62,118 nucleotides of DNA, filler included, from 8 parts of 8 records of this genome joined end to end with filler, not necessarily neighbours in it, one strand, 5' to 3'; counted from the first letter of the whole stretch, positions 6,802 to 18,437 are shown. Notes: generated from the letters alone by a model not told the origin. A program made the numbers and translations.

Positions 6802-7992
6802 CGCAACATCCCCATTTTGGGGACCACGACCGACGGCAACGCATCGGACAAGCGTTTGAACAACGAACTGCTGACCAATATCTCAAAATACATGGCCAAG
6901 CACGGGCTTCAGCCAGGCGCTTATGTCTATGTGGCCGATTCAGCCTTTGTCACCGAGGACAATCTTGCCAAAAGCGATGGCCATACCTGGTTTCTGACCC
7001 GTCTGCCGGCCACCTACAAGGAATGCGGCCGAATCGTTCGTGAAGCCGTGCTCAAGGATGACTGGATTGATATTGGTCCCCTGGCCGAGGAACACGACCA
7101 TCCCAATCGACCGGTTGCCCGCTATCGGGTCTATGACGGTACCGTGGCGCTTTATGAAAAAACCTACCGGGCAATTGTCGTGCATTCCAGTGCGCATGAC
7201 AAAAGGCGTCATAAACGCATCGACCGCATGTTGAAACAGGATCGTAACCAACTCGACGCCGACTGCAAGGAAATCGCGAAGACGGTGTACTATTGCCAGG
7301 CAGATGCAAAGGCCGCCGCGGAAAAACTGATCCACAAATCCGGCTCCAGTTATCATCACCTCCACGTTGATGTTGAAGAAGTGCCCAAATACGGTCGCGG
7401 CCGGCCTGCTTCAGGTAAATCCAGAGAAGCCTTGCGCTATGAATATCGTTTGGTGACCACCATTGCCGAAGCCTCGGACAAGGTCGGTTCCCTCAGAGAA
7501 GAAGCCGGCTGTTTTGTGCTGTTGACCAACCTTTTGGATCAGCAAGCGGATTGGCCCGCCGAAGCACTGCTGTCACTGTACAAGAGCCAGATCGGCATAG
7601 AGAAGAACTTCAGCTTTCTGAAGGATCCGGCCATCGTGAACAGCATTTTTCTGAAGAAGGCCAGGCGGATCGAAGTTCTGGGCCTGATTCTGTTGATATC
7701 CCTGTTGATCTGGCGGTTGATGGAACGATCCATGCGCCAGTATGTTGAAGCCAACGACTGCGAACTGCCCGGCTGGTTGCGCCGGAAAACCCGCAAGCCA
7801 ACAGCCTTCATGATGACAACCAAGTTTACTTCCGTCATGGTCATCACGATCGGCAACCACAGGCAGTTGGCAAAGCCCTTGAAAGCGTTCCAGCTGGAAT
7901 ATTTAAAGGCGCTGGGCGTCACCCGTTTACCGTTCTCTAAAGGAACCAAAAAAATTAGTCAAACCGTTGTCGTTTAGGGTGCGGAATGTATG
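6802..7992 (+). mobile_element. IS1634-family insertion sequence, 5'-truncated transposase (ORF to 7977) with probable right end
   Basis: DGNASD, VADSA, FVLLTN and YKSQIGIEKNFSFLK DDE motifs; GGTGCGGAATGT-like end just after the ORF. Confidence 0.88.
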
Positions 7993-8548
7993 TTACATTT
8001 TTTTCACCGGTCGAAATAATCGTCGGCGAACACTTCTCCGGGATAAACAAGCGTTTGTCGATCAGGGCGTAGCCGTGCTCGGAAACATAGCCTGCGAAAA
8101 CGCCTACCTGGCAATTATCCACTTTGCCGATGGTCCCGCAGTATTGTCTGGCAACCCCGATCGAGTCATTGCCCTTTTTAGCGTAGCCGCTCTAATCAAA
8201 AAGCATGGCGCCGTCTGGACTGCCAAGATCGTCGTTAACACAACTACGATACTTGGTAGCCATTTTATCCTCTGCCCATTGAGCATCACTGACAAAGCGT
8301 TGCATCGGTCTTGGGGTCCCTTCTTTCACGGCCATGGCGATGGGTTCGATGGACTTCCGCTCAAGTGGACTGAATTGTCCGGACATGTAATTAAAAAAGT
8401 GATCTCTGGATTCACTACGATGGAAACAATCGGCAAACTGCTCGTGAAATCCTTTTAATTCATTATTAAAATCTTTGATATTCCCTTTGCCAAGGTCAAA
8501 CTTTGGAACCGGATAAAGGTATTCGTCGCATCGGATGACGGGTAACAT
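7993..8548 (-). pseudogene. IS701-family transposase remnant
   Basis: ERKSIEPIA..MQRFV..D*SGYAKKGNDSIGVARQYCGTIGKVDNCQVGVF; in-frame TAG at 8192-8194; truncated at the IS1634 end. Confidence 0.88.
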
Positions 8549-8740
8549 GGCCTGCCTCTTTTTTAAGGGTTGTTTCGTAGTTTGGCAGACCAAGAATTAG
8601 ATTTCAATATGGAATCATATTATGGTGTCGTTGTAGGGCTATATCAAACTGGAGTACCACAATGCCTTCAATGAGGGTTTGATATATTCTTTTGGATTAC
8701 CAAATGGTGAAATGATTTAAATATTTTGAAAAAGCAAACA

Positions 8741-8795: not shown

Positions 8796-9757
8796 TTATA
8801 TAGCGCCCAAATATTGACTTACCACATCGTCTCGATCCGGACCGTGACCCAACTCAGCTTTTATTATCTGCCTTGCATCCTGGTTCAGATTTTCCCAATT
8901 TTCGCCAGCTATTGTTATTGCATTTTTTCTGAATGCCATTTTTGAGTCAAACTTACACGGCGCCTTAAATCCGGTTATATCTTCGTAGCGATCCTGTGCA
9001 TAAGCATGTCGACATCCATGGCTCGATGCTCCGCAATCTTTCTTTGAGATTCCTTTGGCTCTCGTTATTCTATAATATTTCTGAATCCATTGTTTTTCGC
9101 TATGATCATTTGGAATTAAGTTGTTGATTCCTGATAGTGCTTTTGCATATTCTATCGCTGCTTTCCCGTTTTCGGTCAGTTCGTTTATTATCCGTTCCCT
9201 TCCACCTTTGGTTCCATGCTGAATGAATACCCTTCCACCTGTCATGACCGCCTGGTGGGCATTAAATTTACACGCTTCTTCGACCCTTAGTCCCAGATAA
9301 CGTTCCAATTGCAGCTGGGCAGCAGCCCTTTTGTCATCGCTGCTGTTGCTTTGCATCAATTCTGTCACCGCTTTTTGAAACACTTCCTCGGGCAATGATT
9401 TGTCACGATTATCCACAAACACACGATTGGGGATGCCAAATTGAGTATTGTCTGTTTTTATTCGATCGTTCCCATAAAGCCTGCACACAGCTCGAACACC
9501 GGATAAATATTCTTTAATCGTTGCTACCTTCAGATCATCTTCTTTCCATTTGTCGACCGCTTTTTGAATGTGAAGATTGGTTACATTATTCCATCTTTTT
9601 ACACCGTAACCCAGCGCTCGAATCGTATCCACAAATCTTCGGGCCTCTTTAATATGGTTGTGTCGGGTCTTGGTGGAACCGGATTTGCTTTTTTTATTCC
9701 CCGTATAGCTTGCATTACCAGCGTGTCCGTTCTCGTTGAGTTGCTCAGTCTGATCAC
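8796..9757 (-). CDS. Tyrosine recombinase of the Integrase_1-like subfamily; real start probably about 9748-9757 with a one-base frameshift near 9685
   Basis: Full catalytic set: GLRVEE (R), GTKGGRER (K), HGCRHAYAQ (HxxR), ELGH (H), VSQYL (Y). The upstream frame reads GSTKTRHNHIKEARRFVDT; RBS AGGGAGG at 9757-9763. Confidence 0.88.
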
Positions 9758-10179: not shown

Positions 10180-10533
10180 TTAACGTTGCTTGATTATGGT
10201 TTTGGATCGTTCCCAGTCACATTTGGCATGGCTGCCGGCAAGTCCTTTTTCAATGAGGTGAGGGCATATCAAAGCGACTTTCCTCGCGGCATCTTCCAAA
10301 AATCGGTCGAAACGGAAACGGAAGAAGTGTGCGGTCATTTCTTCAGCCCATGCAAGGCGTGTGTCGTCGAACGATGATATACATTCACGCAAGCTAAAAG
10401 CCGCATCTTCAGACCATAATGAGAGAATCAGTTTCGCCAGTCCATTTGCCGACCCCGCACCTTCATGTCGATTGATCCATTCCACCACATGCGCGTAAGG
10501 ATTTTTAAAATCTTTTCCAGTATTGTCGGTCAT
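10180..10533 (-). CDS. Small hypothetical protein of the mobile element
   Basis: 117 aa, RBS AGGAG, co-oriented directly after the RadC gene; no family confidently recognised. Confidence 0.7.
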   Translation of the reverse strand: MTDNTGKDFKNPYAHVVEWINRHEGAGSANGLAKLILSLWSEDAAFSLRECISSFDDTRLAWAEEMTAHFFRFRFDRFLEDAARKVALICPHLIEKGLAGSHAKCDWERSKTIIKQR

Positions 10534-10560
10534 GATTTCTCCTTACTTCCTTTTTTTTGT

Positions 10561-11079
10561 TTACATCTGTGAGATTTGATCCAATACGGAACACACTTTG
10601 CGTTTGGTATGTTCAATTATTTTTTCGTCTGCGAAAGACAGGTAGGTATCAGAATCCATGTCCACGATAATGTGATCCAGAATTTCCAGATCGAACAGAT
10701 GCGCAGACGCCATTATCATGCGGGTGATCATTTTATCTTCCATGGATGGCGAGGGATCTCCCGAAGGGTGATTGTGTCCGAGGATCAAGGATCTGCAGGG
10801 CATGTTTATTGCGGCCTTAACGACCTCCCGGGGCTGTACGATACTTCGGGTCAGGCTTCCAGTGGATACCAGGTTTGTGCCGATGGGTTTCAGCTTTGTA
10901 TTCAGCATTACCACTACGAAGTTTTCCCGATCTGTCTGACCGAGCTGGCGGATCATATTCTTGATTAATTGGGAACCAGAGAAACTATTGTGGATGGCCT
11001 GATCACTCAAGAAATGGATTTCTTGTTCTTTGACCATATGCAGCTTGTATGCATAAAAGTGATATTCTTTCATGTTCAC
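10561..11079 (-). CDS. RadC-like JAB/MPN-domain protein (short, mobile-element type)
   Basis: DRENFVVVMLNTK, VQPREV, HNHPSGDPSPSMED and ILDHIIV motifs; RBS GGGAGG at 11086-11091 places the start at 11079 (GTG) or 11073 (ATG). Confidence 0.92.
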   Translation of the reverse strand: MNMKEYHFYAYKLHMVKEQEIHFLSDQAIHNSFSGSQLIKNMIRQLGQTDRENFVVVMLNTKLKPIGTNLVSTGSLTRSIVQPREVVKAAINMPCRSLILGHNHPSGDPSPSMEDKMITRMIMASAHLFDLEILDHIIVDMDSDTYLSFADEKIIEHTKRKVCSVLDQISQM

Positions 11080-11085
11080 TATCAT

Positions 11086-11170
11086 CCTCCCTATTGTCAG
11101 GCGCAAAGGCTCCCACGGTCAGGGAGGACATCCCCATCGGGAAACCTTTACGGTTCCCCGATTAGGGGGA
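11086..11170 (-). promoter_or_regulatory. Structured leader, copy B, before the RadC-like gene
   Basis: Minus strand: TCCCCctaATCGGGGAACC-gtaaa-GGTTTCCCGATGGGGA tgtc CTCCC-tgaccgt-GGGAG CCTTTGCG, then AGGGAGG. Confidence 0.65.
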
Positions 11171-11225
11171 ATTTGTGTTTGATTTAACGCATGTTTTGAA
11201 GACCGTAATGCGTTGCCTGTTTACT

Positions 11226-12029
11226 TTATCTGCCTTTTAGTTTGGCCATTCCTTCGGTCAGGACCCACAAGGCTTTGTTGAGTTTGACATCCCTATCAAT
11301 GGATTTCACCGGGCGGGTTCTGACTCGACGAATATGGCCATTCGCATTTCGTTTGCTTCCATATATTCCTCCTTTCATGATATTTTCCTGGACCACATTA
11401 AATGTTGTCCACAGATCATTTCCTTGGTCGTCATAGCGTCGTTCTTCTAATAACTGTACTGGCAAAATCGGTGCCTTTTCGATATCTTCATAGACCAGTT
11501 TGTGCGCAGCTATGGCGAAAACGCCTTTTTCATTCGGGGAGAGGTCTACGGCCTTTAAATCATTGACTTGTACGGCGATATCTCCGGCACCTTCAGCAAT
11601 CTGGTAAGCCGAATCTAAAAAAGCGGTTATATCAAAACCGACATGTCTGTGTGAAAAATTGAACAGTTTCGAGGATACCATCAATCCATTTCCGCATATT
11701 TTACGCCAGATCGAGGCACAAAGCTGAAACGCACACCCACGATCATGGGAGTTGGTCATCACCAGATCGACGCGTTCCTGGTCGGTTGCAAGGGCACCCT
11801 GCATGAATCGGATGATGTGTTTCTGATAGCCGTTACGATCCTTTTTCCTTGTTCCGGATTGCTTCACATGCACGGGCTGCCACCCGGCGGACCTCAACAA
11901 ATCAACAGCCTCGATGGTCGGCACAAAGCTATATCGGTCCGAAACCGTATCATGTGGGTTTACCGCTCCTGCTGCCGGAGCCAATTCGACGATTTGATCA
12001 TTGGTCAGGGGAATGATTTGTGATTTCAT
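11226..12029 (-). CDS. DUF932 (DUF945) family protein
   Basis: SDRYSFVPT, YQKHIIRF, NSHD, R.IC.NGL, RRYDD..DLWTTFNVVQENIMKGG and LNKALW motifs; RBS GGGAGG before ATG at 12029. Confidence 0.9.
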   Translation of the reverse strand: MKSQIIPLTNDQIVELAPAAGAVNPHDTVSDRYSFVPTIEAVDLLRSAGWQPVHVKQSGTRKKDRNGYQKHIIRFMQGALATDQERVDLVMTNSHDRGCAFQLCASIWRKICGNGLMVSSKLFNFSHRHVGFDITAFLDSAYQIAEGAGDIAVQVNDLKAVDLSPNEKGVFAIAAHKLVYEDIEKAPILPVQLLEERRYDDQGNDLWTTFNVVQENIMKGGIYGSKRNANGHIRRVRTRPVKSIDRDVKLNKALWVLTEGMAKLKGR

Positions 12030-12035
12030 TGTCTG

Positions 12036-12127
12036 CCTCCCTTTGGAAAAAAGCCGCAACGGTTCCCTCCATAGGGAGAACACCACCGTATCGGGGAACC
12101 ATTGCGGTACCCCGGATTTGGGGTTGG
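12036..12127 (-). promoter_or_regulatory. Structured leader, copy A, before the DUF932 gene
   Basis: Minus strand: ATCCGGGGTACC-gcaat-GGTTCCCCGATACGGTGG tgtt CTCCCT-atgg-AGGGAA CCGTTGCGG, then AGGGAGG; aligns with copy B. Confidence 0.65.
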
Positions 12128-12141
12128 ATTTTAGAATTGTT

Positions 12142-12666
12142 CTATTTTTTTAATTGATTTATTGTCTCGACGGCGCGCCTGATCGTGCGCTGAAGGTAAG
12201 CAGCCTGGCGCCGTTGACCATTGTGATGTGCCCAATCTTTTCTTTCTTGCAACAGCCTGTCGGCAACGACTTCCGGATCCATTCCCCGACGCAACAATGA
12301 GAGGGCATAGGCAAAATCAGTCGCCGACTCATCCCCGCGATCGTAATCGGTACGCATGATGGGGTCGCCCGATAGACACTGCTTTATGGCTTTTTCCCTG
12401 ATTGGCCGTCGGTCAACTGTTTTTTCCGGAAGGTTTACCTTCGGTACTTGAGCCACTTTTTCCCAGTCCACCCAAATAAGGCGGGAGAGGGGAAATCGTC
12501 CCTTTTTACCATATTTCGATTTGCAATTTCGAAAGCCTGGACAACGGCCCCAACGCAAGTTCGGATCACAGGCTGGATCTGCGCGGAAAAACCTGATCCA
12601 ATATCGTTTCTCCGGGTTGCTGATGCTCCGTACTGCTTTGACCCATACCTGAAAATTGCCGGGGCT
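12142..12666 (-). CDS. RepB-type DNA primase (RSF1010 RepB'-like), 5'-truncated
   Basis: Frame is open to the contig edge: SPGNFQVWV..ADPA..WGRCPGFRNCKSKY, plus C-terminal helical bundle DESATDFAYA..YLQRT. Confidence 0.75.
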   Translation of the reverse strand, partial: SPGNFQVWVKAVRSISNPEKRYWIRFFRADPACDPNLRWGRCPGFRNCKSKYGKKGRFPLSRLIWVDWEKVAQVPKVNLPEKTVDRRPIREKAIKQCLSGDPIMRTDYDRGDESATDFAYALSLLRRGMDPEVVADRLLQERKDWAHHNGQRRQAAYLQRTIRRAVETINQLKK

Positions 12667-12768
12667 AANNNNNNNNNNNNNNNNNNNNNNNNNNNNNNNN
12701 NNNNNNNNNNNNTTAATTAATTAANNNNNNNNNNNNNNNNNNNNNNNNNNNNNNNNNNNNNNNNNNNN

Positions 12769-13983
12769 GACGCTGTCAAAAATTTAGTTTCTAACGGTAT
12801 TAGAACAGGTGGTGGCATCTATATTGACAGCGGTAATGCTACATTAAAAAATTGTATCATTAGTAATAACTCGATTTCTGGTAGTAGCAACGCTAAAGGT
12901 GGAGGGGTGGCTATGAGTGGAACATTAACGCTAAACAATTGTGCTATCCGAAATAATTCGATTTCAGGTTCAGTCGGTAGCTTTTCAAGTTCAAGTGCGC
13001 TTGGGGGAGGTGTTTATTTAGAAGGCTCATGCACACTGTATAATTGCATTATTGATGGGAACTCTGGAGAAACATCTGCAGGTAATTTTAGTACTGCAAT
13101 CTCAAGAGGTGGCGGCTTATTTGTGACTGGAGGGTATACATTAACAAATTGCATTGTTTCAAACAATTGGGTGTCTGCTTCTGGGGGCGATGAACGGATA
13201 AGGGAAGGAGGTGGCGTTTATTCGAATGTATCAGATACAACCTCAACCTTGATAAACTGCACTATTGCTTTTAATACAAACCAAGGGATCAGGAATAATG
13301 ACAACCAAATTAAAATTTTAAACTCCATTCTTTTCTATAATACTCCAGATGTGGAACAGCTTTCTGGATTAGTAGCGGCCGATTACAGTGACATTCAAAT
13401 ACCGGGGGTTCCTCCTGATTCTACTTATCCAGGGAAAGACAATATAAATGCCGATCCTTTTTTCAATACAAATGACATGCACTGTTTGCACATAGTAGAG
13501 GGATCGCCCTGCATAGACAAAGGCAGCCCAGAGGATATTTATAACGATGAGTGTTTTCCTGAAGCAACTGGAGATAGCCGTAAAAAACCCTCATTGGGGA
13601 CGGAAAGAAATGACATAGGTGCACATGGTGGCCCAATGGCCTGTAACTGGACGTTAGATGAATGTCTTATTGTTAGCGTCAGAGAGGAAACCATAAACCT
13701 TCCAAAATACTTTATTTTGCAACAAAACTATCCGAATCCATTTAATCCGAGAACAACTATTAGCTATCAGCTACCAAACCAAGCAAAAGTCGAATTAACA
13801 GTTTATAATTTCCTAGGGCAGAATATCAAAGAATTAGTAAATGAAATACAAGCCCCAGGAATACATCGGGTTCAGTGGGATGGGAAAGACAACAGCGGTC
13901 GGCTAGTGGCAAGTAGTGTTTATATTTATCAGATCAGAGCTAATGAAATCATAGAGTCCAAGAAGTTAGTACTAATTCAGTAA
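12769..13983 (+). CDS. Secreted beta-helix (pectin-lyase-like repeat) protein with C-terminal T9SS/FlgD-like sorting domain, 5'-truncated
   Basis: GGG[VL]Y..L.NC.I..N repeats; GSPCIDKG..DIGA.GG; LQQNYPNPFNPRTTISYQL..WDG C-terminus. Confidence 0.82.
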   Translation, partial: DAVKNLVSNGIRTGGGIYIDSGNATLKNCIISNNSISGSSNAKGGGVAMSGTLTLNNCAIRNNSISGSVGSFSSSSALGGGVYLEGSCTLYNCIIDGNSGETSAGNFSTAISRGGGLFVTGGYTLTNCIVSNNWVSASGGDERIREGGGVYSNVSDTTSTLINCTIAFNTNQGIRNNDNQIKILNSILFYNTPDVEQLSGLVAADYSDIQIPGVPPDSTYPGKDNINADPFFNTNDMHCLHIVEGSPCIDKGSPEDIYNDECFPEATGDSRKKPSLGTERNDIGAHGGPMACNWTLDECLIVSVREETINLPKYFILQQNYPNPFNPRTTISYQLPNQAKVELTVYNFLGQNIKELVNEIQAPGIHRVQWDGKDNSGRLVASSVYIYQIRANEIIESKKLVLIQ

Positions 13984-14138
13984 TATCGACTATAATTTAG
14001 CTCTTAATTACTGGCAAATAGATCTCTGACTTTAGCGTCGGTGAAGTGTGTATACCTAAATGGAATAAATAAGACTCTGGAGCAGGTGTAGATAAAATTA
14101 GTCTCTAAAATTTGTATTATAATAAAGAGAGACAACCA

Positions 14139-17100
14139 ATGAAAAGCATTTTTATAGGGATATTGTTTTTCTTGATAAATTCCATATCTTATTCCCAGCC
14201 AACAAACAATGCTCTTGAGTTCGATGGAGTGGATGACTATATTGAAATTTTAGCCAGTCCGCAAGATTTGGGTATCTCCGATATTTTTACTGCTACAATA
14301 TGGTTTAAGCAGGATTCGCAGTGGTCATTTCTTGTCATGAATAAATCTACAACACGAATCTACATTAATGGAGAGTTTGAATACGAAATTCCTACGGGTA
14401 TTACTTTCGATGAAACCAGCAATATTAGATTAGTCTATTTACCATATTTCGGCTACTTTAAAGGGTTAGCTGATGAGCTCCGTATATGGAACTTTGCACT
14501 CTCGGAACAACAGATAACAGAATATATGAATATTCCGCTTGAGGGTGATGAACAAGGCTTGGTTGGTTATTGGCCTTTTGATGAAAGTGATACAGACACT
14601 CTTTTTGATAGATCATCAAATAATAATATTGGATTATTAGGAGGTGGGAATCGAAAAAATCAACCAATACGAGTTCAATCGAATATTCCAATTTCCGAAT
14701 TCATCAAAATATTATATATAAAAGCACCAAGCGGTATACTTCAATTAGGTCAAAATATTATACCTCAAGTCGTAGTACAAAATATAAGTTGGCAAGAAGT
14801 AAGCTTTAAAACAAAATTTCTAATTCATCCATCTTATTCCGATAGTGCACAATCACCGAGCATATTGCCTGGGGATAGCATAACGGTGAGTTTGCCATCC
14901 TGGCAACCTCTAAAGGCTGCTGCTTACACGACAACAAGTAGTATTAGTTATGACGGTGTACATGTTATAGACCAAAAAACAGGAAGGGTGGTTGTTAGTG
15001 GTGAAATAGGACCCGAAATTCATGACATTAATCCTTCTATTGGCGTTAATGGAGGAGTTTTCACGATAAGTATAACTGGAAAAAAATTTAAAGAAGGCAT
15101 AACTGCCCGCCTTATCCAGCACGATGATTCTGAAATTATTGCCGATTCTGCTGCAATTCAGTTTATTAATTCTTCTGAGATAAAAGTAAATTTTAATTTG
15201 CAAGAAGCATTAGAAGGAGATTGCCATCTAAAAGTTTTAAATCCTGATGGGAACACTTTTACTTATTATGAAGGATTTAAAGTTATTGAATTTGAAGGTC
15301 AGCAGCTTACTTTTGGCAATTGGGAAGAATTTAAGGTAGCAAAAGGAACTTCTATAGATGTGGGAGTCAATGTCCCTTCAAATATTAATGATCTTTTTGT
15401 GTTAGTTAAAAAAACTACTCATATTGGTTATTCAGGAACCTGGGCAGGTAGTATCAAACTTTTTAAACAAGGACAAGAAGTTGCTTATCGAAATGGTAAT
15501 AGTGATTTTGAAATACACATTCAAAATCCAGAATCTGGTTGGTATACATTAGAAATTTATAGTAGTGATCCTGGGGATGGATTAATAAAAGTCTGTTCTT
15601 CAATAGATAATTTATCCCTTGGTCAATGGAAAATAGGAACTATACTTCGTCCTTATGGCTGGAATTGGATGCAATTGGATGTTCCTGCAAATCAGCAAAC
15701 CCTTTATTTGGAAACAGAGGGTTTTGGCCTCTGGAGTACACTAGACATATATTATGATTATATTGGTAACAACAATCAGCATTGGCAATTATCTAATATG
15801 GGGGCAGGTTATCATATTGAAGAAAAAATTGCAAATCCAATTGCTGGAAGATATTATCTTCGTTATATGGATTCGGCTGTTATGAAAGGAACATCCTCTC
15901 AGACTCGTGAATATATGATTATTGCGTCAAATACTGCACAAATTCCTACTCCCGAGACTACTTTAAAAGTAACTTCTATAATCCCAAAACAAGTAGCTAA
16001 CGATAGTTTAGTAACAATTTCAATTTATGGTAGTGGATTTAATGCTGATGATGTAGCGATACTTGTAGGAGAAAATAATTTAAAAATAATTTCATATAAA
16101 TGTTATTGTAACGATTCAAAAACAATACTTTATCCAACATTTGATTTATCTCATGCACCTACTGGGGAATGGGAACTTGTTATAAAAAAACAAAATGGAG
16201 ATAGTTTAAAAAGTGAGCAGACAATCGTAATTGAATCTGTTTCCAACATAGATCTTCAAGCTAATATTCAAGGTCGTAAATTATTCCGAATTGGTCGGCA
16301 ACAAAGTTATCAGATTAATTTGATAAATAATGGTAATACAAATGCGGAAGATGTAATATTTATAATCTTTTTTCCGAAGCTTGCCGAGGCAGTCCTTGAA
16401 ATGAAGGAATCGAAACATTCAATTGATTACATACCCGAACTCCAAAGCAATGAAAGTGAAACCGAATGGTATGCATTTACAATTTATCGAAAAATGTTAA
16501 TCCCCAAACAGAATCTAAGTGCAGAACTTCATCTTAGACTTATACAGAATATAAATAATTTTCAAATTTTAATTTATGCGATGCAAACCCCCGATGTTTT
16601 TTTAAAGACATTATCAAAACCTCTATATGTAAAAAATATGTTAAGTCAATACTACTCTGAAATTGAAATATGGTTTGGACCTATAAATTTAAATCCCCTA
16701 AAATTCTCTTTACCAGAGCATACAATTTTTAAATTTCCACAAGAGTCTGGACCTAATGTTTTATCCACTTTAAATTGCAAATCCTTTAATGGATGTCAAG
16801 CTGTAGTAAAAAAAAACTATAGCGATATAAAAAAAATACTTGAACAAGCTGGTTATAAAAAATGTAATGAATGTACGCAAAATGGAGGTAAATACTATTT
16901 TAAGTCGAAAAATGAACATGATATGATGTTTAAAAAGCTAACCGATTTATCTAACAGTGGTCTATATTTTAAGTATAGTAACGAAAAACCAAAAGGATTT
17001 ATAGATAATAATGGTAATTTTATACCGCAAGGTACAATAAATTGTAGAGGTTTATTTGAAGGAATAGCTGAATTTTTAAAAATCGGAACAAATGGAGAAG

Positions 17101-18437
17101 GAGTTATTCCTGATAATAAAGAGGATTATGGACTAATGGGAAGATTACCTAAATATTTTAACGCTGATTTACCATGGTATTGGGATTTTTTAAATTGGTA
17201 TGCAGATCCTTTGCCAAATGGTCGTTTACCAGATGCAAGCATAGATGGAACAGTTGTTGGATCCTCAACTCCAGAAGATAAATATGGACCCGAAGGTTAT
17301 GATCCTCCAGATACTACCAATATGAAACTTTGGAAATATATATTAAAAGATAAAGTATTGTCTTATAACATTGATTTCTGGAATAAAGAAGATGCCACTG
17401 CCCCAGCTCAAGAAGTATTCATTCTTGATACATTAGATAGAAATTTTGCAGATAATACATTTAGTTTTAATGAATTTGGGTTCTTAAAATGGAAAAGGCA
17501 ACTAAATGGAGGACATTACTTCAATGTAAAGGTTGATATGCGACCAGACGAAAACTTAATTGTGAATGTAGAAGGAAAATATGACCAGGACAATAGAGAA
17601 ATTAGTTGGATTTTCCGCTCACTTGATCCACAAACAGGGCAATTGCCAGAAGATCATATGGCTGGATTTTTACCGCAGATAGATTCAACAGGTTATCAAA
17701 TTGGCTGGGTAAGTTATTCTGTTAAACCAATATTTGAATTGACAACTGGTGCTAAAATCACAAACCAGGCATGGGTAAACTTTGACAGAGTCGGTCCATG
17801 GAATCCTGCACCAAAGGAAGGACCTTGGATTAATACAATTGATGCAGATCCTCCAATTAGCTATGTTAATTCGGCTACACAAGATGCCCAATCCGATAGT
17901 ATAATTGTAGAGATAACAGGGCAAGATATAGGTTCAGGTATCACTCATTATTCTTTGTATGTCTCTGAAAATAATAGTCCATATTCAGCGTGGATTTCCA
18001 ATACACAGGATTCAATAATGAAGTTTCAAGTAATCGATAACCATGTATATCGTCTCTACAGCATTGCAAAAGATGGAGCAAGAAATGTTGAAGTTGCACC
18101 TGATTCTTTTGATGTTATTATTACTGACGTAAAAGATAAACAGAATGGCTCCTTACCAAAAGTTTTTTCATTATATCAGAACTATCCAAATCCTTTTAAT
18201 CAAATTTCAACGATAAAATACGATTTGCCTAAAGCAGTTGAGGTAAAATTGGTTGTATACAATATCCTTGGTCAAAAAGTTCGGACACTAATTGATAAAA
18301 AACAGCTTGCTGGATATCACTTAGTAGACTGGAACGGACAAAATGACCTTGGTTTACCAGTAGCTTCAGGAATATATTTGTATAGGATCGAGACGAAAGA
18401 TTTTATAAAAACTAGAAAGATGTTATTGCTCAAATAA
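14139..18437 (+). CDS. Large secreted multidomain protein (LamG, Ig-like/IPT, DUF11-like, variable insert, FN3-like, C-terminal sorting domain)
   Basis: Signal peptide MKSIFIG; ALEFDGVDDY..DELRIWN..GLVGYWPFDE (LamG); TPEDKYGPEG; LYQNYPNPFN..KMLLLK. Confidence 0.82.
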   Translation: MKSIFIGILFFLINSISYSQPTNNALEFDGVDDYIEILASPQDLGISDIFTATIWFKQDSQWSFLVMNKSTTRIYINGEFEYEIPTGITFDETSNIRLVYLPYFGYFKGLADELRIWNFALSEQQITEYMNIPLEGDEQGLVGYWPFDESDTDTLFDRSSNNNIGLLGGGNRKNQPIRVQSNIPISEFIKILYIKAPSGILQLGQNIIPQVVVQNISWQEVSFKTKFLIHPSYSDSAQSPSILPGDSITVSLPSWQPLKAAAYTTTSSISYDGVHVIDQKTGRVVVSGEIGPEIHDINPSIGVNGGVFTISITGKKFKEGITARLIQHDDSEIIADSAAIQFINSSEIKVNFNLQEALEGDCHLKVLNPDGNTFTYYEGFKVIEFEGQQLTFGNWEEFKVAKGTSIDVGVNVPSNINDLFVLVKKTTHIGYSGTWAGSIKLFKQGQEVAYRNGNSDFEIHIQNPESGWYTLEIYSSDPGDGLIKVCSSIDNLSLGQWKIGTILRPYGWNWMQLDVPANQQTLYLETEGFGLWSTLDIYYDYIGNNNQHWQLSNMGAGYHIEEKIANPIAGRYYLRYMDSAVMKGTSSQTREYMIIASNTAQIPTPETTLKVTSIIPKQVANDSLVTISIYGSGFNADDVAILVGENNLKIISYKCYCNDSKTILYPTFDLSHAPTGEWELVIKKQNGDSLKSEQTIVIESVSNIDLQANIQGRKLFRIGRQQSYQINLINNGNTNAEDVIFIIFFPKLAEAVLEMKESKHSIDYIPELQSNESETEWYAFTIYRKMLIPKQNLSAELHLRLIQNINNFQILIYAMQTPDVFLKTLSKPLYVKNMLSQYYSEIEIWFGPINLNPLKFSLPEHTIFKFPQESGPNVLSTLNCKSFNGCQAVVKKNYSDIKKILEQAGYKKCNECTQNGGKYYFKSKNEHDMMFKKLTDLSNSGLYFKYSNEKPKGFIDNNGNFIPQGTINCRGLFEGIAEFLKIGTNGEGVIPDNKEDYGLMGRLPKYFNADLPWYWDFLNWYADPLPNGRLPDASIDGTVVGSSTPEDKYGPEGYDPPDTTNMKLWKYILKDKVLSYNIDFWNKEDATAPAQEVFILDTLDRNFADNTFSFNEFGFLKWKRQLNGGHYFNVKVDMRPDENLIVNVEGKYDQDNREISWIFRSLDPQTGQLPEDHMAGFLPQIDSTGYQIGWVSYSVKPIFELTTGAKITNQAWVNFDRVGPWNPAPKEGPWINTIDADPPISYVNSATQDAQSDSIIVEITGQDIGSGITHYSLYVSENNSPYSAWISNTQDSIMKFQVIDNHVYRLYSIAKDGARNVEVAPDSFDVIITDVKDKQNGSLPKVFSLYQNYPNPFNQISTIKYDLPKAVEVKLVVYNILGQKVRTLIDKKQLAGYHLVDWNGQNDLGLPVASGIYLYRIETKDFIKTRKMLLLK

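Follow-up and report, generated by a model that had tools for sequence, protein, structure and literature searches.

Mutually exclusive folds in the leaders of DUF932 and RadC genes on mobile elements of sulfate reducers: a putative translational switch

The DUF932–RadC locus and its two leaders

The window, i.e., the whole 62,118-nt stretch of DNA that was analyzed (eight parts of eight records joined with filler), carries on its minus strand the 3' part of a RepB-type primase gene, leader A, a DUF932 gene, leader B, a RadC-like gene, an open reading frame (ORF) of 117 amino acids, and an Integrase_1-family tyrosine recombinase gene, in that order. The two leaders, which are 77% identical, are the subject of this work, and they were confirmed to be a structured non-coding element repeated in front of each of two cargo genes, as a first-pass annotation of the window had claimed. 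The annotation had described one layout for both copies (a long stem 1, a stem 2, a 3' segment, and the Shine-Dalgarno (SD) sequence AGGGAGG), and each of its sequence statements held on the minus strand. The apex of stem 1 had been reported to pair with the 3' segment over 9 bp in A and 8 bp in B, with one G-U each, and we obtained the same pairings by hand. The 3' segment quoted for copy A was CCGTTGCGG, within 12054-12067, and that of copy B lies within 11102-11114. The anti-SD sequence (TCTCCCT in A and CCTCCCT in B) was found to be complementary to AGGGAGG, as had also been stated, and can pair with the SD. In copy A, stem 1 has the loop GCAAT and one U.U mismatch, and AGGGA at the 5' end of the 3' segment (X' in Table 1) can pair with the anti-SD instead, which corresponds to the stem 2 of the annotation.

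The core pattern CGGGGWACC-N5-GGTTYCCCGAT was found in the whole window only at the two leader sites and as their palindromic reverses (none expected from 100 shuffles), and it was absent from the scanned viral contigs. Both leaders folded better than their shuffled sequences (z of -3.6 and -5.0, 0 of 200 shuffles as good). Length differences of one base, at 12047 (three of three DNA runs) and in loci L084 and L001, argue against coding and thus for a non-coding leader A. The run of U residues after the long helix of A (12047-12052) was one base shorter in contigs of the three DNA runs and in L084, representing length variation in the population. Two other explanations for the conserved sequence were rejected: a leader peptide, as its in-frame GTG at 12086 is lost by 1-nt length changes in homologues, and a double-stranded protein operator, which was ruled out by variable spacing and an excess of G-U pairs.

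The DUF932 protein starts at the methionine of MKSQ (ATG 12027-12029) in an alignment of 18 DUF932 proteins. Database homologues of 279-290 amino acids (P0001-P0003) have their annotated start within the leader, at an in-frame GTG or ATG (12027-12086, minus strand), one example being MGTIAVLSKGRQT-MKSQ..., and because the aligned start is the MKSQ methionine, public DUF932 annotations run through the leader. For RadC, the probable start is GTG 11077-11079, with an alternative in-frame ATG at 11071-11073, and its homologues begin VN(K/T)KEY... No sigma-70-like promoter was found in front of either window leader. In one metatranscriptome run (X16), no contig covered the leaders, and two contigs of 151 nt (depth 2) fell within DUF932, at 11358-11508 and 11586-11736; these contigs carry neither strand nor ends, may represent DNA carry-over, and are uninformative on the leaders.

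Table 1. Positions of the leader parts and neighboring genes in the window (R1, model of the type I leaders; MFE, minimum free energy; H1, X, and X' as described in the text)
Feature	Position	Strand	Evidence
Leader A (type I), non-coding, RepB-primase stop to DUF932 start	12030..12126	-	R1 match 12027-12126, 105.2 bits (by construction)
A: H1 mini-hairpin, 5' strand ACCCC, partner GGGGT 12109-12113	12120..12124	-	RNAalifold consensus; covariation of pair 4:19
A: stem 1, 5' arm CGGGGTACC, partner GGTTCCCCG 12092-12100	12106..12114	-	Sequence; 92.6% of cells paired in 15 homologues
A: long helix, 5' strand X CCGCAATGGTTCCC (stem-1 top, loop, and 3' arm)	12094..12107	-	Copy A MFE; 13 aligned pairs
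A: anti-SD TCTCCCT	12073..12079	-	Complementary to AGGGAGG; pairs with SD in stem-1 state, opening 13.4 kcal/mol
A: long helix, 3' strand X' GGGAACCGTTGCGG	12054..12067	-	MFE, RNAalifold, covariation, prefix folding
A: SD AGGGAGG; ATG 12027-12029	12036..12042	-	Sequence
Leader B (type I), before RadC	11080..11173	-	R1 match 11077-11172, 86.6 bits (by construction)
B: stem 1, 11152-11160 with 11138-11146, loop GTAAA 11147-11151	11138..11160	-	Sequence, MFE, homologue counts
B: long helix, X strand	11141-11152	-	Sequence, homologue counts
B: anti-SD CCTCCCT	11121..11127	-	Pairs with SD in 10-bp helix, copy B MFE
B: long helix, 3' strand X' GGAGCCTTTGCG	11102..11113	-	RNAalifold, covariation
B: SD AGGGAGG	11086..11092	-	Sequence
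RepB-type primase gene, 3' part, cut at contig end	12142..12558	-	PF22448 and PF16793 (Pfam)
DUF932 gene, 267 amino acids (ATG 12029, stop 11226)	11226..12029	-	PF06067, E 3.7e-31
RadC-like JAB gene	10561..11079	-	PF04002, E 1.5e-34
Integrase_1-family tyrosine recombinase, end of element	8796..9632	-	PF12835, E 2.3e-14

Conserved helices and covariation in type I leaders

Relatives were gathered from 74 genome loci and 7 metagenome loci, the latter from a metagenome scan with the DUF932 protein, and the DUF932 homologues were mostly from Desulfobacterota. Leaders of the window's type (type I) were found in eight loci (15 leaders, eight before DUF932 and seven before RadC), and the leaders at most of the remaining loci belong to a sister type of shorter length (type II). 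With the R1 model, each of the four Desulfosarcina genomes searched whole gave exactly two strong matches, one in front of DUF932 and one in front of RadC. The R1 seed included both window leaders and the Desulfosarcina leaders, and the window scores (105.2 and 86.6 bits) are high by construction. The sole R1 match outside the seed was a third, divergent copy on a metagenome contig (L080:262-366, 35.2 bits), which precedes an ORF of 79 amino acids without a Pfam family. The anti-SD (UUCCUU) and SD (AAGGAG) of this copy are altered together.

The RNAalifold consensus of type I comprised a mini-hairpin, H1, in which CCCC pairs with GGGG of the stem-1 5' arm, and a 13-bp helix of strands X and X'. 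Both window leaders are predicted to have the type I architecture, namely H1, the long X:X' helix with the anti-SD located in the loop of the latter, and, about 10 nt further downstream, the SD. In H1 and the long helix, 97.4% of the cells were paired across the 15 leaders, compared with 33-59% in slid controls, and three pairs (4:19, 24:74, and 27:71) had changed on both sides, in 14 cells; neither the cell count nor the covariation score was reached by any of 500 shuffles. The H1 pair 4:19 was AU in six leaders, UA in six, GU in one, and other in two. Pairs 24:74 (CG 9, UG 5, UA 1) and 27:71 (AU 7, UA 4, UG 3) join the apex and the 3' segment, and their covariation in the 15 homologous leaders agrees with the earlier observation that these segments change together.

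The apex/3'-segment complementarity continues into the 3' arm of stem 1 and uses bases shared with stem 1; the resulting helix has 14 bp in copy A but is limited to 12 bp in copy B, where pair 21:77 is C.C. Stem 1 was mismatched at 19:31 in 9 of the 15 leaders. The wobble pairs had been said to fit the transcribed strand only, and among the homologues the long helix had 25 G-U cells and 2 A-C cells; as the former far exceed the latter, the helix works on the sense strand only. Both covarying long-helix pairs, 24:74 and 27:71, sit in the stem-1 loop, and thus covariation alone cannot separate a loop contact from a full helix. The anti-SD region of A- and B-type leaders was mis-registered by MAFFT, and type I anti-SD:SD covariation was therefore judged by hand and from duplex energies instead of column counts.

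Energetics and order of folding of type I leaders

Each fold was forced in all 15 type I leaders. Opening of the SD required 1.1-7.6 kcal/mol in the long-helix sub-ensemble versus 9.0-16.3 kcal/mol in the stem-1 sub-ensemble, in which the anti-SD lies on the SD, and alternative states with opposite SD accessibility were obtained in 15 of 15 homologues. The two-state translational switch suggested by the first-pass annotation stood in this respect, but its wiring differs, with the long helix as the alternative to stem 1. The difference between the two states ranged from -8.2 to +5.1 kcal/mol (+2.5 for window leader A and -6.0 for window leader B); A-type leaders were near zero or open-favoring, and B-type leaders were mostly closed-favoring. 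In the MFE fold of copy A, the long helix is prolonged into a hairpin of about 22 bp with hardly any interruption, and U6 follows it.

Folding of successive prefixes gave stem 1 and stem 2 in both copies at about 62 nt and H1 with the long helix at about 70-86 nt. The long helix was adopted by prefixes ending before the SD in 14 of the 15 leaders, and at full length the MFE of 10 of the 15 had switched to stem 1 and a paired SD.

A larger sister family, type II

The type II model (R2), built from 29 leaders, gave 125 matches at E ≤ 0.1 in 82 sources, of which 109 were on the gene strand. At E ≤ 1.5e-4, 64 matches remained, every one of them on the gene strand, and a single locus had as many as five. 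The genes behind these leaders encode DUF932, RadC, SSB, a PD-(D/E)XK-like protein, DUF3846, DUF6927, DUF2786/DUF7168, an SNF2/ResIII helicase, and several small proteins of unknown function. The leaders occupy intergenic gaps, and in 83 of 97 leaders no more than 28 nt separate the upstream stop codon from the start of the model (median 14 nt). In the phylum sample, matches were found in at least 4 of 151 genomes, for which 29 candidates per genome were scored.

The helix between the ribosome-binding site (RBS) and the anti-RBS was paired in 95.4% of the cells (38-62% in slid controls), with both-sided changes at 8 of its 10 pairs (40 cells; reached by 0 of 500 shuffles), although these counts are inflated, as the helix was in the search model and alignment A6 was fitted to it. 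A second helix, absent from the model, joins the anti-RBS to an upstream RBS mimic. It was paired in 85.7% of the cells (50-65% in slid controls), with 6 of 9 pairs changed on both sides in 28 cells; the number of cells was reached by 0 of 500 shuffles and the number of pairs by 59 of 500. The mimic consists of the 5' arm and loop of hairpin P1 (80% paired, 6 of 8 pairs), and its pairing with the anti-RBS is mutually exclusive with both P1 and the RBS pairing. An alignment-free comparison gave cognate duplexes about 4 kcal/mol better than permuted ones for anti-RBS:RBS and mimic:anti-RBS (-15.7 vs. -11.4 and -16.6 vs. -12.8 kcal/mol), which was matched in 0 of 5000 permutations. The advantage held with one representative per cluster, where single-linkage RBS clustering had placed 84 of 106 leaders in one cluster and the cluster-level test comprised 10 units. 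Each mimic was also more similar to its own RBS than to the RBSs of others.

Before the RBS is made, the anti-RBS was held by the mimic in the prefix MFE of 47 of the 64 type II leaders, and the full-length MFE was closed (anti-RBS:RBS) in 56. The closed fold was more stable in 57 of the 64, by at least 5 kcal/mol in 50. Opening of the RBS required 10.3 kcal/mol, compared with 6.3 kcal/mol when the upstream sequence was shuffled, and was higher in 57 of the 64 leaders. That selection has kept a pairing lying outside the equilibrium fold argues, for these leaders as for type I, for a role during transcription or upon a trigger.

R2 matched window leader A with 18.6 bits (E 0.05), and leader B was not among the matches at E ≤ 0.1; of the other type I leaders, three B-type and four A-type leaders scored about 18-22 bits. 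Both types share the order of C-run, G-rich hairpin, G-run, GUGU, anti-RBS, spacer, and SD. Type I, though weakly scored by R2, is likely homologous with type II and would be a derived variant of this much larger family.

Proposed mechanism and alternatives

The helices, their covariation, their mutual exclusion, and their effect on SD accessibility were established by computation. On these grounds, we favor with moderate confidence the reading of each leader as a bistable mRNA segment that acts in cis to gate translation of the gene behind it. In the open fold, the upstream CCCC would pair with the 5' arm of stem 1 to form H1, and the stem-1 loop and 3' arm would pair with X' as a helix of 12-14 bp; the anti-SD would lie in the loop of this helix, partly paired to the G-run, leaving the SD free. 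In the closed fold, stem 1 would re-form, lengthened by CCCC with the GGGG behind it, X' would be released, and the anti-SD would pair with the SD in a helix of 7-10 bp. The two folds are predicted to be a few kcal/mol apart, with the DUF932 leader tuned open and the RadC leader tuned closed. In type II, the anti-RBS would pair either with the RBS or with the upstream RBS mimic held in P1. The choice of fold is presumably made during transcription: the open fold would form first, allowing ribosomes to load while the RNA is still nascent, and RNA left unused would relax into the closed fold, acting as a self-closing latch in the manner of the MS2 maturation-gene leader. The stem-1 loop may serve as the toehold or nucleation step for strand exchange. 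Less probably, an upstream ribosome or a trans factor would act as the trigger of the switch. More tentatively, the leaders may be self-timed translational latches with one "address" per establishment gene (SSB, nuclease, RadC, DUF932, and others).

Several results weigh against this gating reading. The number of type I pairs changed on both sides was matched by 244 of 500 shuffles, the type I covariation represents few independent events (two paralogous series in eight loci), and stem 1, with 92.6% of its cells paired, was yet without covariation in the 15 leaders; the inflated anti-RBS:RBS counts of type II belong here as well. In nested folding, the SD opening of type I was 6.4 kcal/mol versus 6.3 kcal/mol for shuffled sequences and was higher in only 6 of the 15 leaders. 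The equilibrium fold of copy A, as modeled, leaves the SD largely open, and leader A may be mostly constitutive; 7 of the 64 type II leaders also favor the open fold at equilibrium. The direct-path barriers (median of 18 kcal/mol for type II and 25-40 kcal/mol for type I) are upper bounds of a nested model, not lifetimes, and are blind to loop-mediated exchange.

The first-pass annotation had proposed a different topology, in which stem 1 stays, its apical loop engages the 3' segment as an H-type pseudoknot or in a kissing interaction, and this contact together with stem 2 sets access to the anti-SD. The position of both covarying pairs in the 5-nt loop and the prediction of stems 1 and 2 for both copies at about 62 nt speak for it, but the pairings cited for A (9 bp) and B (8 bp) take up, on either side, the two base pairs that close stem 1, and a fully paired 5-nt loop leaves no linker nucleotides. 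Moreover, 4-5 further pairs, 97% paired, run down the stem-1 3' arm, H1, which captures the stem-1 5' arm, covaries at 4:19, and stem 1 has a U.U mismatch in all A-type leaders. We consider this topology unlikely; because of the sterics, the extension of the pairing, and the H1 covariation, the mutually exclusive helix is preferred, and the pairing of the apex with the 3' segment is probably not a pseudoknot but the upper part of a helix of 12-14 bp that cannot coexist with stem 1. A somewhat less improbable alternative is an expression platform flipped by a factor, such as the terminating upstream ribosome, an RNA-binding protein or small RNA encoded by the element, or a ligand on CCCC, the internal loop, or the stem-1 domain. 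The type I states are nearly isoenergetic, the median distance of 14 nt from the upstream stop places a terminating ribosome near the CCCC strand, the C-runs and G-runs are conserved across all address variants, and several small ORFs of unknown function lie behind sister leaders. However, CCCC is paired in both states (in H1 or in the stem-1 extension), and its masking would favor neither clearly; 14 of 97 leaders are more than 28 nt from the upstream stop, among them window leader B (about 55-60 nt); unlike known ligand aptamers, the conserved 5' domain is small and has variable loops; and no candidate factor was identified.

Leader A could also be read as a transcription attenuator between the primase and DUF932 genes, with the long helix and CTTTTTT (12047-12053) as terminator and stem 1 as antiterminator. 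The 22-bp hairpin followed by U6 in the copy A MFE would fit, and A-type homologues keep 3-6 U in the 8 nt after the helix. We nevertheless hold this to be quite improbable, for B-type leaders have no U-run (CUGACAAU), just 20 of 64 type II leaders have at least 5 U in the 8 nt after the mimic helix, and the length of the U-run differs between strains. Both states would also be off, by termination or by SD pairing, and the helix loop of 31 nt is atypical, with no call made there by the terminator scan. The last alternative places the function of the structures not in RNA but in single-stranded DNA, where they would serve as a single-strand promoter or priming signal in conjugative transfer. 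It draws on the type IV coupling protein, ParA/ParB, SSB, and primase of the element and on the position of the leaders before genes typical of the early-entering conjugative region. Such regions are reported to use folded single-strand promoters (PMC11541004, PMC9849209). Against this, G-U pairs are far above A-C pairs and the template strand would be mismatched, the covarying partners are the SD and the start-codon region, and the helices contain no -35/-10-like hexamers. The elements are about 90 nt, and known single-strand promoters are much longer. We consider an action in DNA highly improbable.

Setting in a mobile element

Past the integrase gene lie a transposase fragment and then ordinary chromosomal genes (ABC transporter, PocR/AraC regulator, and DUF5107). 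The mobile-element contig ends inside the RepB primase gene, and the linker from about 12690 (12691-12767) is an N run with TTAATTAATTAA in its middle. The 117-amino-acid ORF after RadC had no Pfam family. A syntenic element in a 3.3-Mb Desulfosarcina contig (G008:C4) contains a type IV coupling protein, ParA, ParB, SSB, and the full RepB primase, which is uncut there with 259 amino acids, and shares the DUF932, RadC, 117-amino-acid ORF, and integrase end adjoining chromosomal genes. Because of this gene content and the same integrase end beside the chromosome, the setting of the leaders is an integrative, probably conjugative, element.

Several further features of these elements were observed. 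An inverted repeat (AACGCAT...ATGCGTT) lies between the DUF932 stop and leader B (11175-11225, minus strand) and is present in some homologues, though not in L002. A DDE_5 transposase fragment beside the integrase (8192-8593 and 7955-8458), overlapped by opposite-strand ORFs, resembles a decayed insertion at the edge of the element. In the syntenic element, insertions were found between ParB and SSB (L102:7288-8647 and 11219-15710), comprising an AbiEii/AbiEi toxin-antitoxin pair, a PIN protein, an HTH/M78 peptidase pair, and three transposases. In the next contig of the window, two large plus-strand ORFs (12907-18437) end in a motif that by eye resembles a Por/T9SS C-terminal sorting domain; if so, the assembly may mix in DNA of another lineage than that of the Desulfobacterota-like element.

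Relation to known RNA families and mechanisms

No match to Rfam 15, including STAXI, c4, and other mobile-element motifs, was found at the gathering score in the whole window. In 40 related loci, the only such matches were group II intron domains elsewhere in L001 and L042; these domains D1-D4 (RF02001, 131 and 130 bits) lie a few kb from leaders (L001:5613-5787 and L042:3667-3831). Scans of the leaders at E ≤ 10 gave only chance snoRNA and miRNA matches. Of the two options left by the first-pass annotation, the described radC motif or a new class, the latter is favored by a cmscan-type Rfam check of both leaders, in which no family was matched. The radC motif, as represented by the Rfam model RF01754 (gathering score of 40 bits), had no match at E ≤ 10 in the region 10400-12690 and none at the gathering score in the 40 related loci, and in five related genomes its best score was 21.1 bits, with none of the five over the cut-off. 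Like the window leaders, it is upstream of radC and a cis-regulatory candidate, and it is associated with other DNA-related genes of mobile elements. It was rejected, as RF01754 has 149 positions, four hairpins, and an unrelated consensus, and the window leaders have about 95 nt with one 5' hairpin domain and the anti-SD/SD. The radC motif was described as a cis-regulatory candidate upstream of radC in Proteobacteria, with unknown function (Weinberg et al. 2010, PMC2864571).

The leaders are thus an uncatalogued family in mobile elements of sulfate reducers, absent from Rfam, and literature searches turned up no description of it. The closest described mechanism is that of the maturation-gene leader of MS2 and related Levivirus phages. 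There, the SD ends up paired with an upstream complement, which is initially sequestered by a metastable hairpin, so that translation occurs from nascent RNA only, and the mutually exclusive folds are both kept by covariation (PMC4615214). The present leaders likewise combine, in prefix and full-length predictions, a final anti-SD:SD fold with a mutually exclusive earlier fold sequestering the anti-SD, with covariation for both. In MS2, however, a single leader stands at the 5' end of the phage's RNA genome and takes a cloverleaf as its final fold, whereas here each gene on the mRNAs of a DNA element has its own leader. The use of an RBS mimic as the partner of the anti-RBS, the many address sequences, and the extra relay of type I (X:X' versus stem 1) also set them apart from MS2. 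The two share no sequence or model similarity, and kinetic control, demonstrated for MS2, is inferred here.

Type I toxin mRNAs with metastable, SD-sequestering hairpins (aapA3/IsoA3 of Helicobacter pylori and hok of plasmid R1) offer another comparison. In these mRNAs of mobile or accessory genes, successive exclusive anti-SD pairings follow the order of transcription, with compensatory changes (PMC6733600). Their transient hairpins are described as blocking nascent translation, whereas the transient fold here is predicted to permit it, and they use 5'-3' long-distance pairing and antisense RNA control, whereas neither an antisense RNA nor a toxin is evident here. The mechanism proposed for the present leaders follows a known principle in a new construction.

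Implications

To our knowledge, apart from riboswitches and a small number of phage and toxin mRNAs, there are few cases of alternative RNA folds in which both are supported by covariation. If the latch holds, ribosomes would load only on nascent RNA and unused RNA would shut, giving an mRNA-intrinsic burst of expression after DNA entry that would be set gene by gene, with DUF932 open-biased and RadC closed-biased. The more than 100 natural copies with many address sequences form a comparative data set on the construction and tuning of switches that gate the RBS. They also suggest that the DUF932/RadC/SSB genes of integrative conjugative elements, a set that is poorly understood, are controlled post-transcriptionally.

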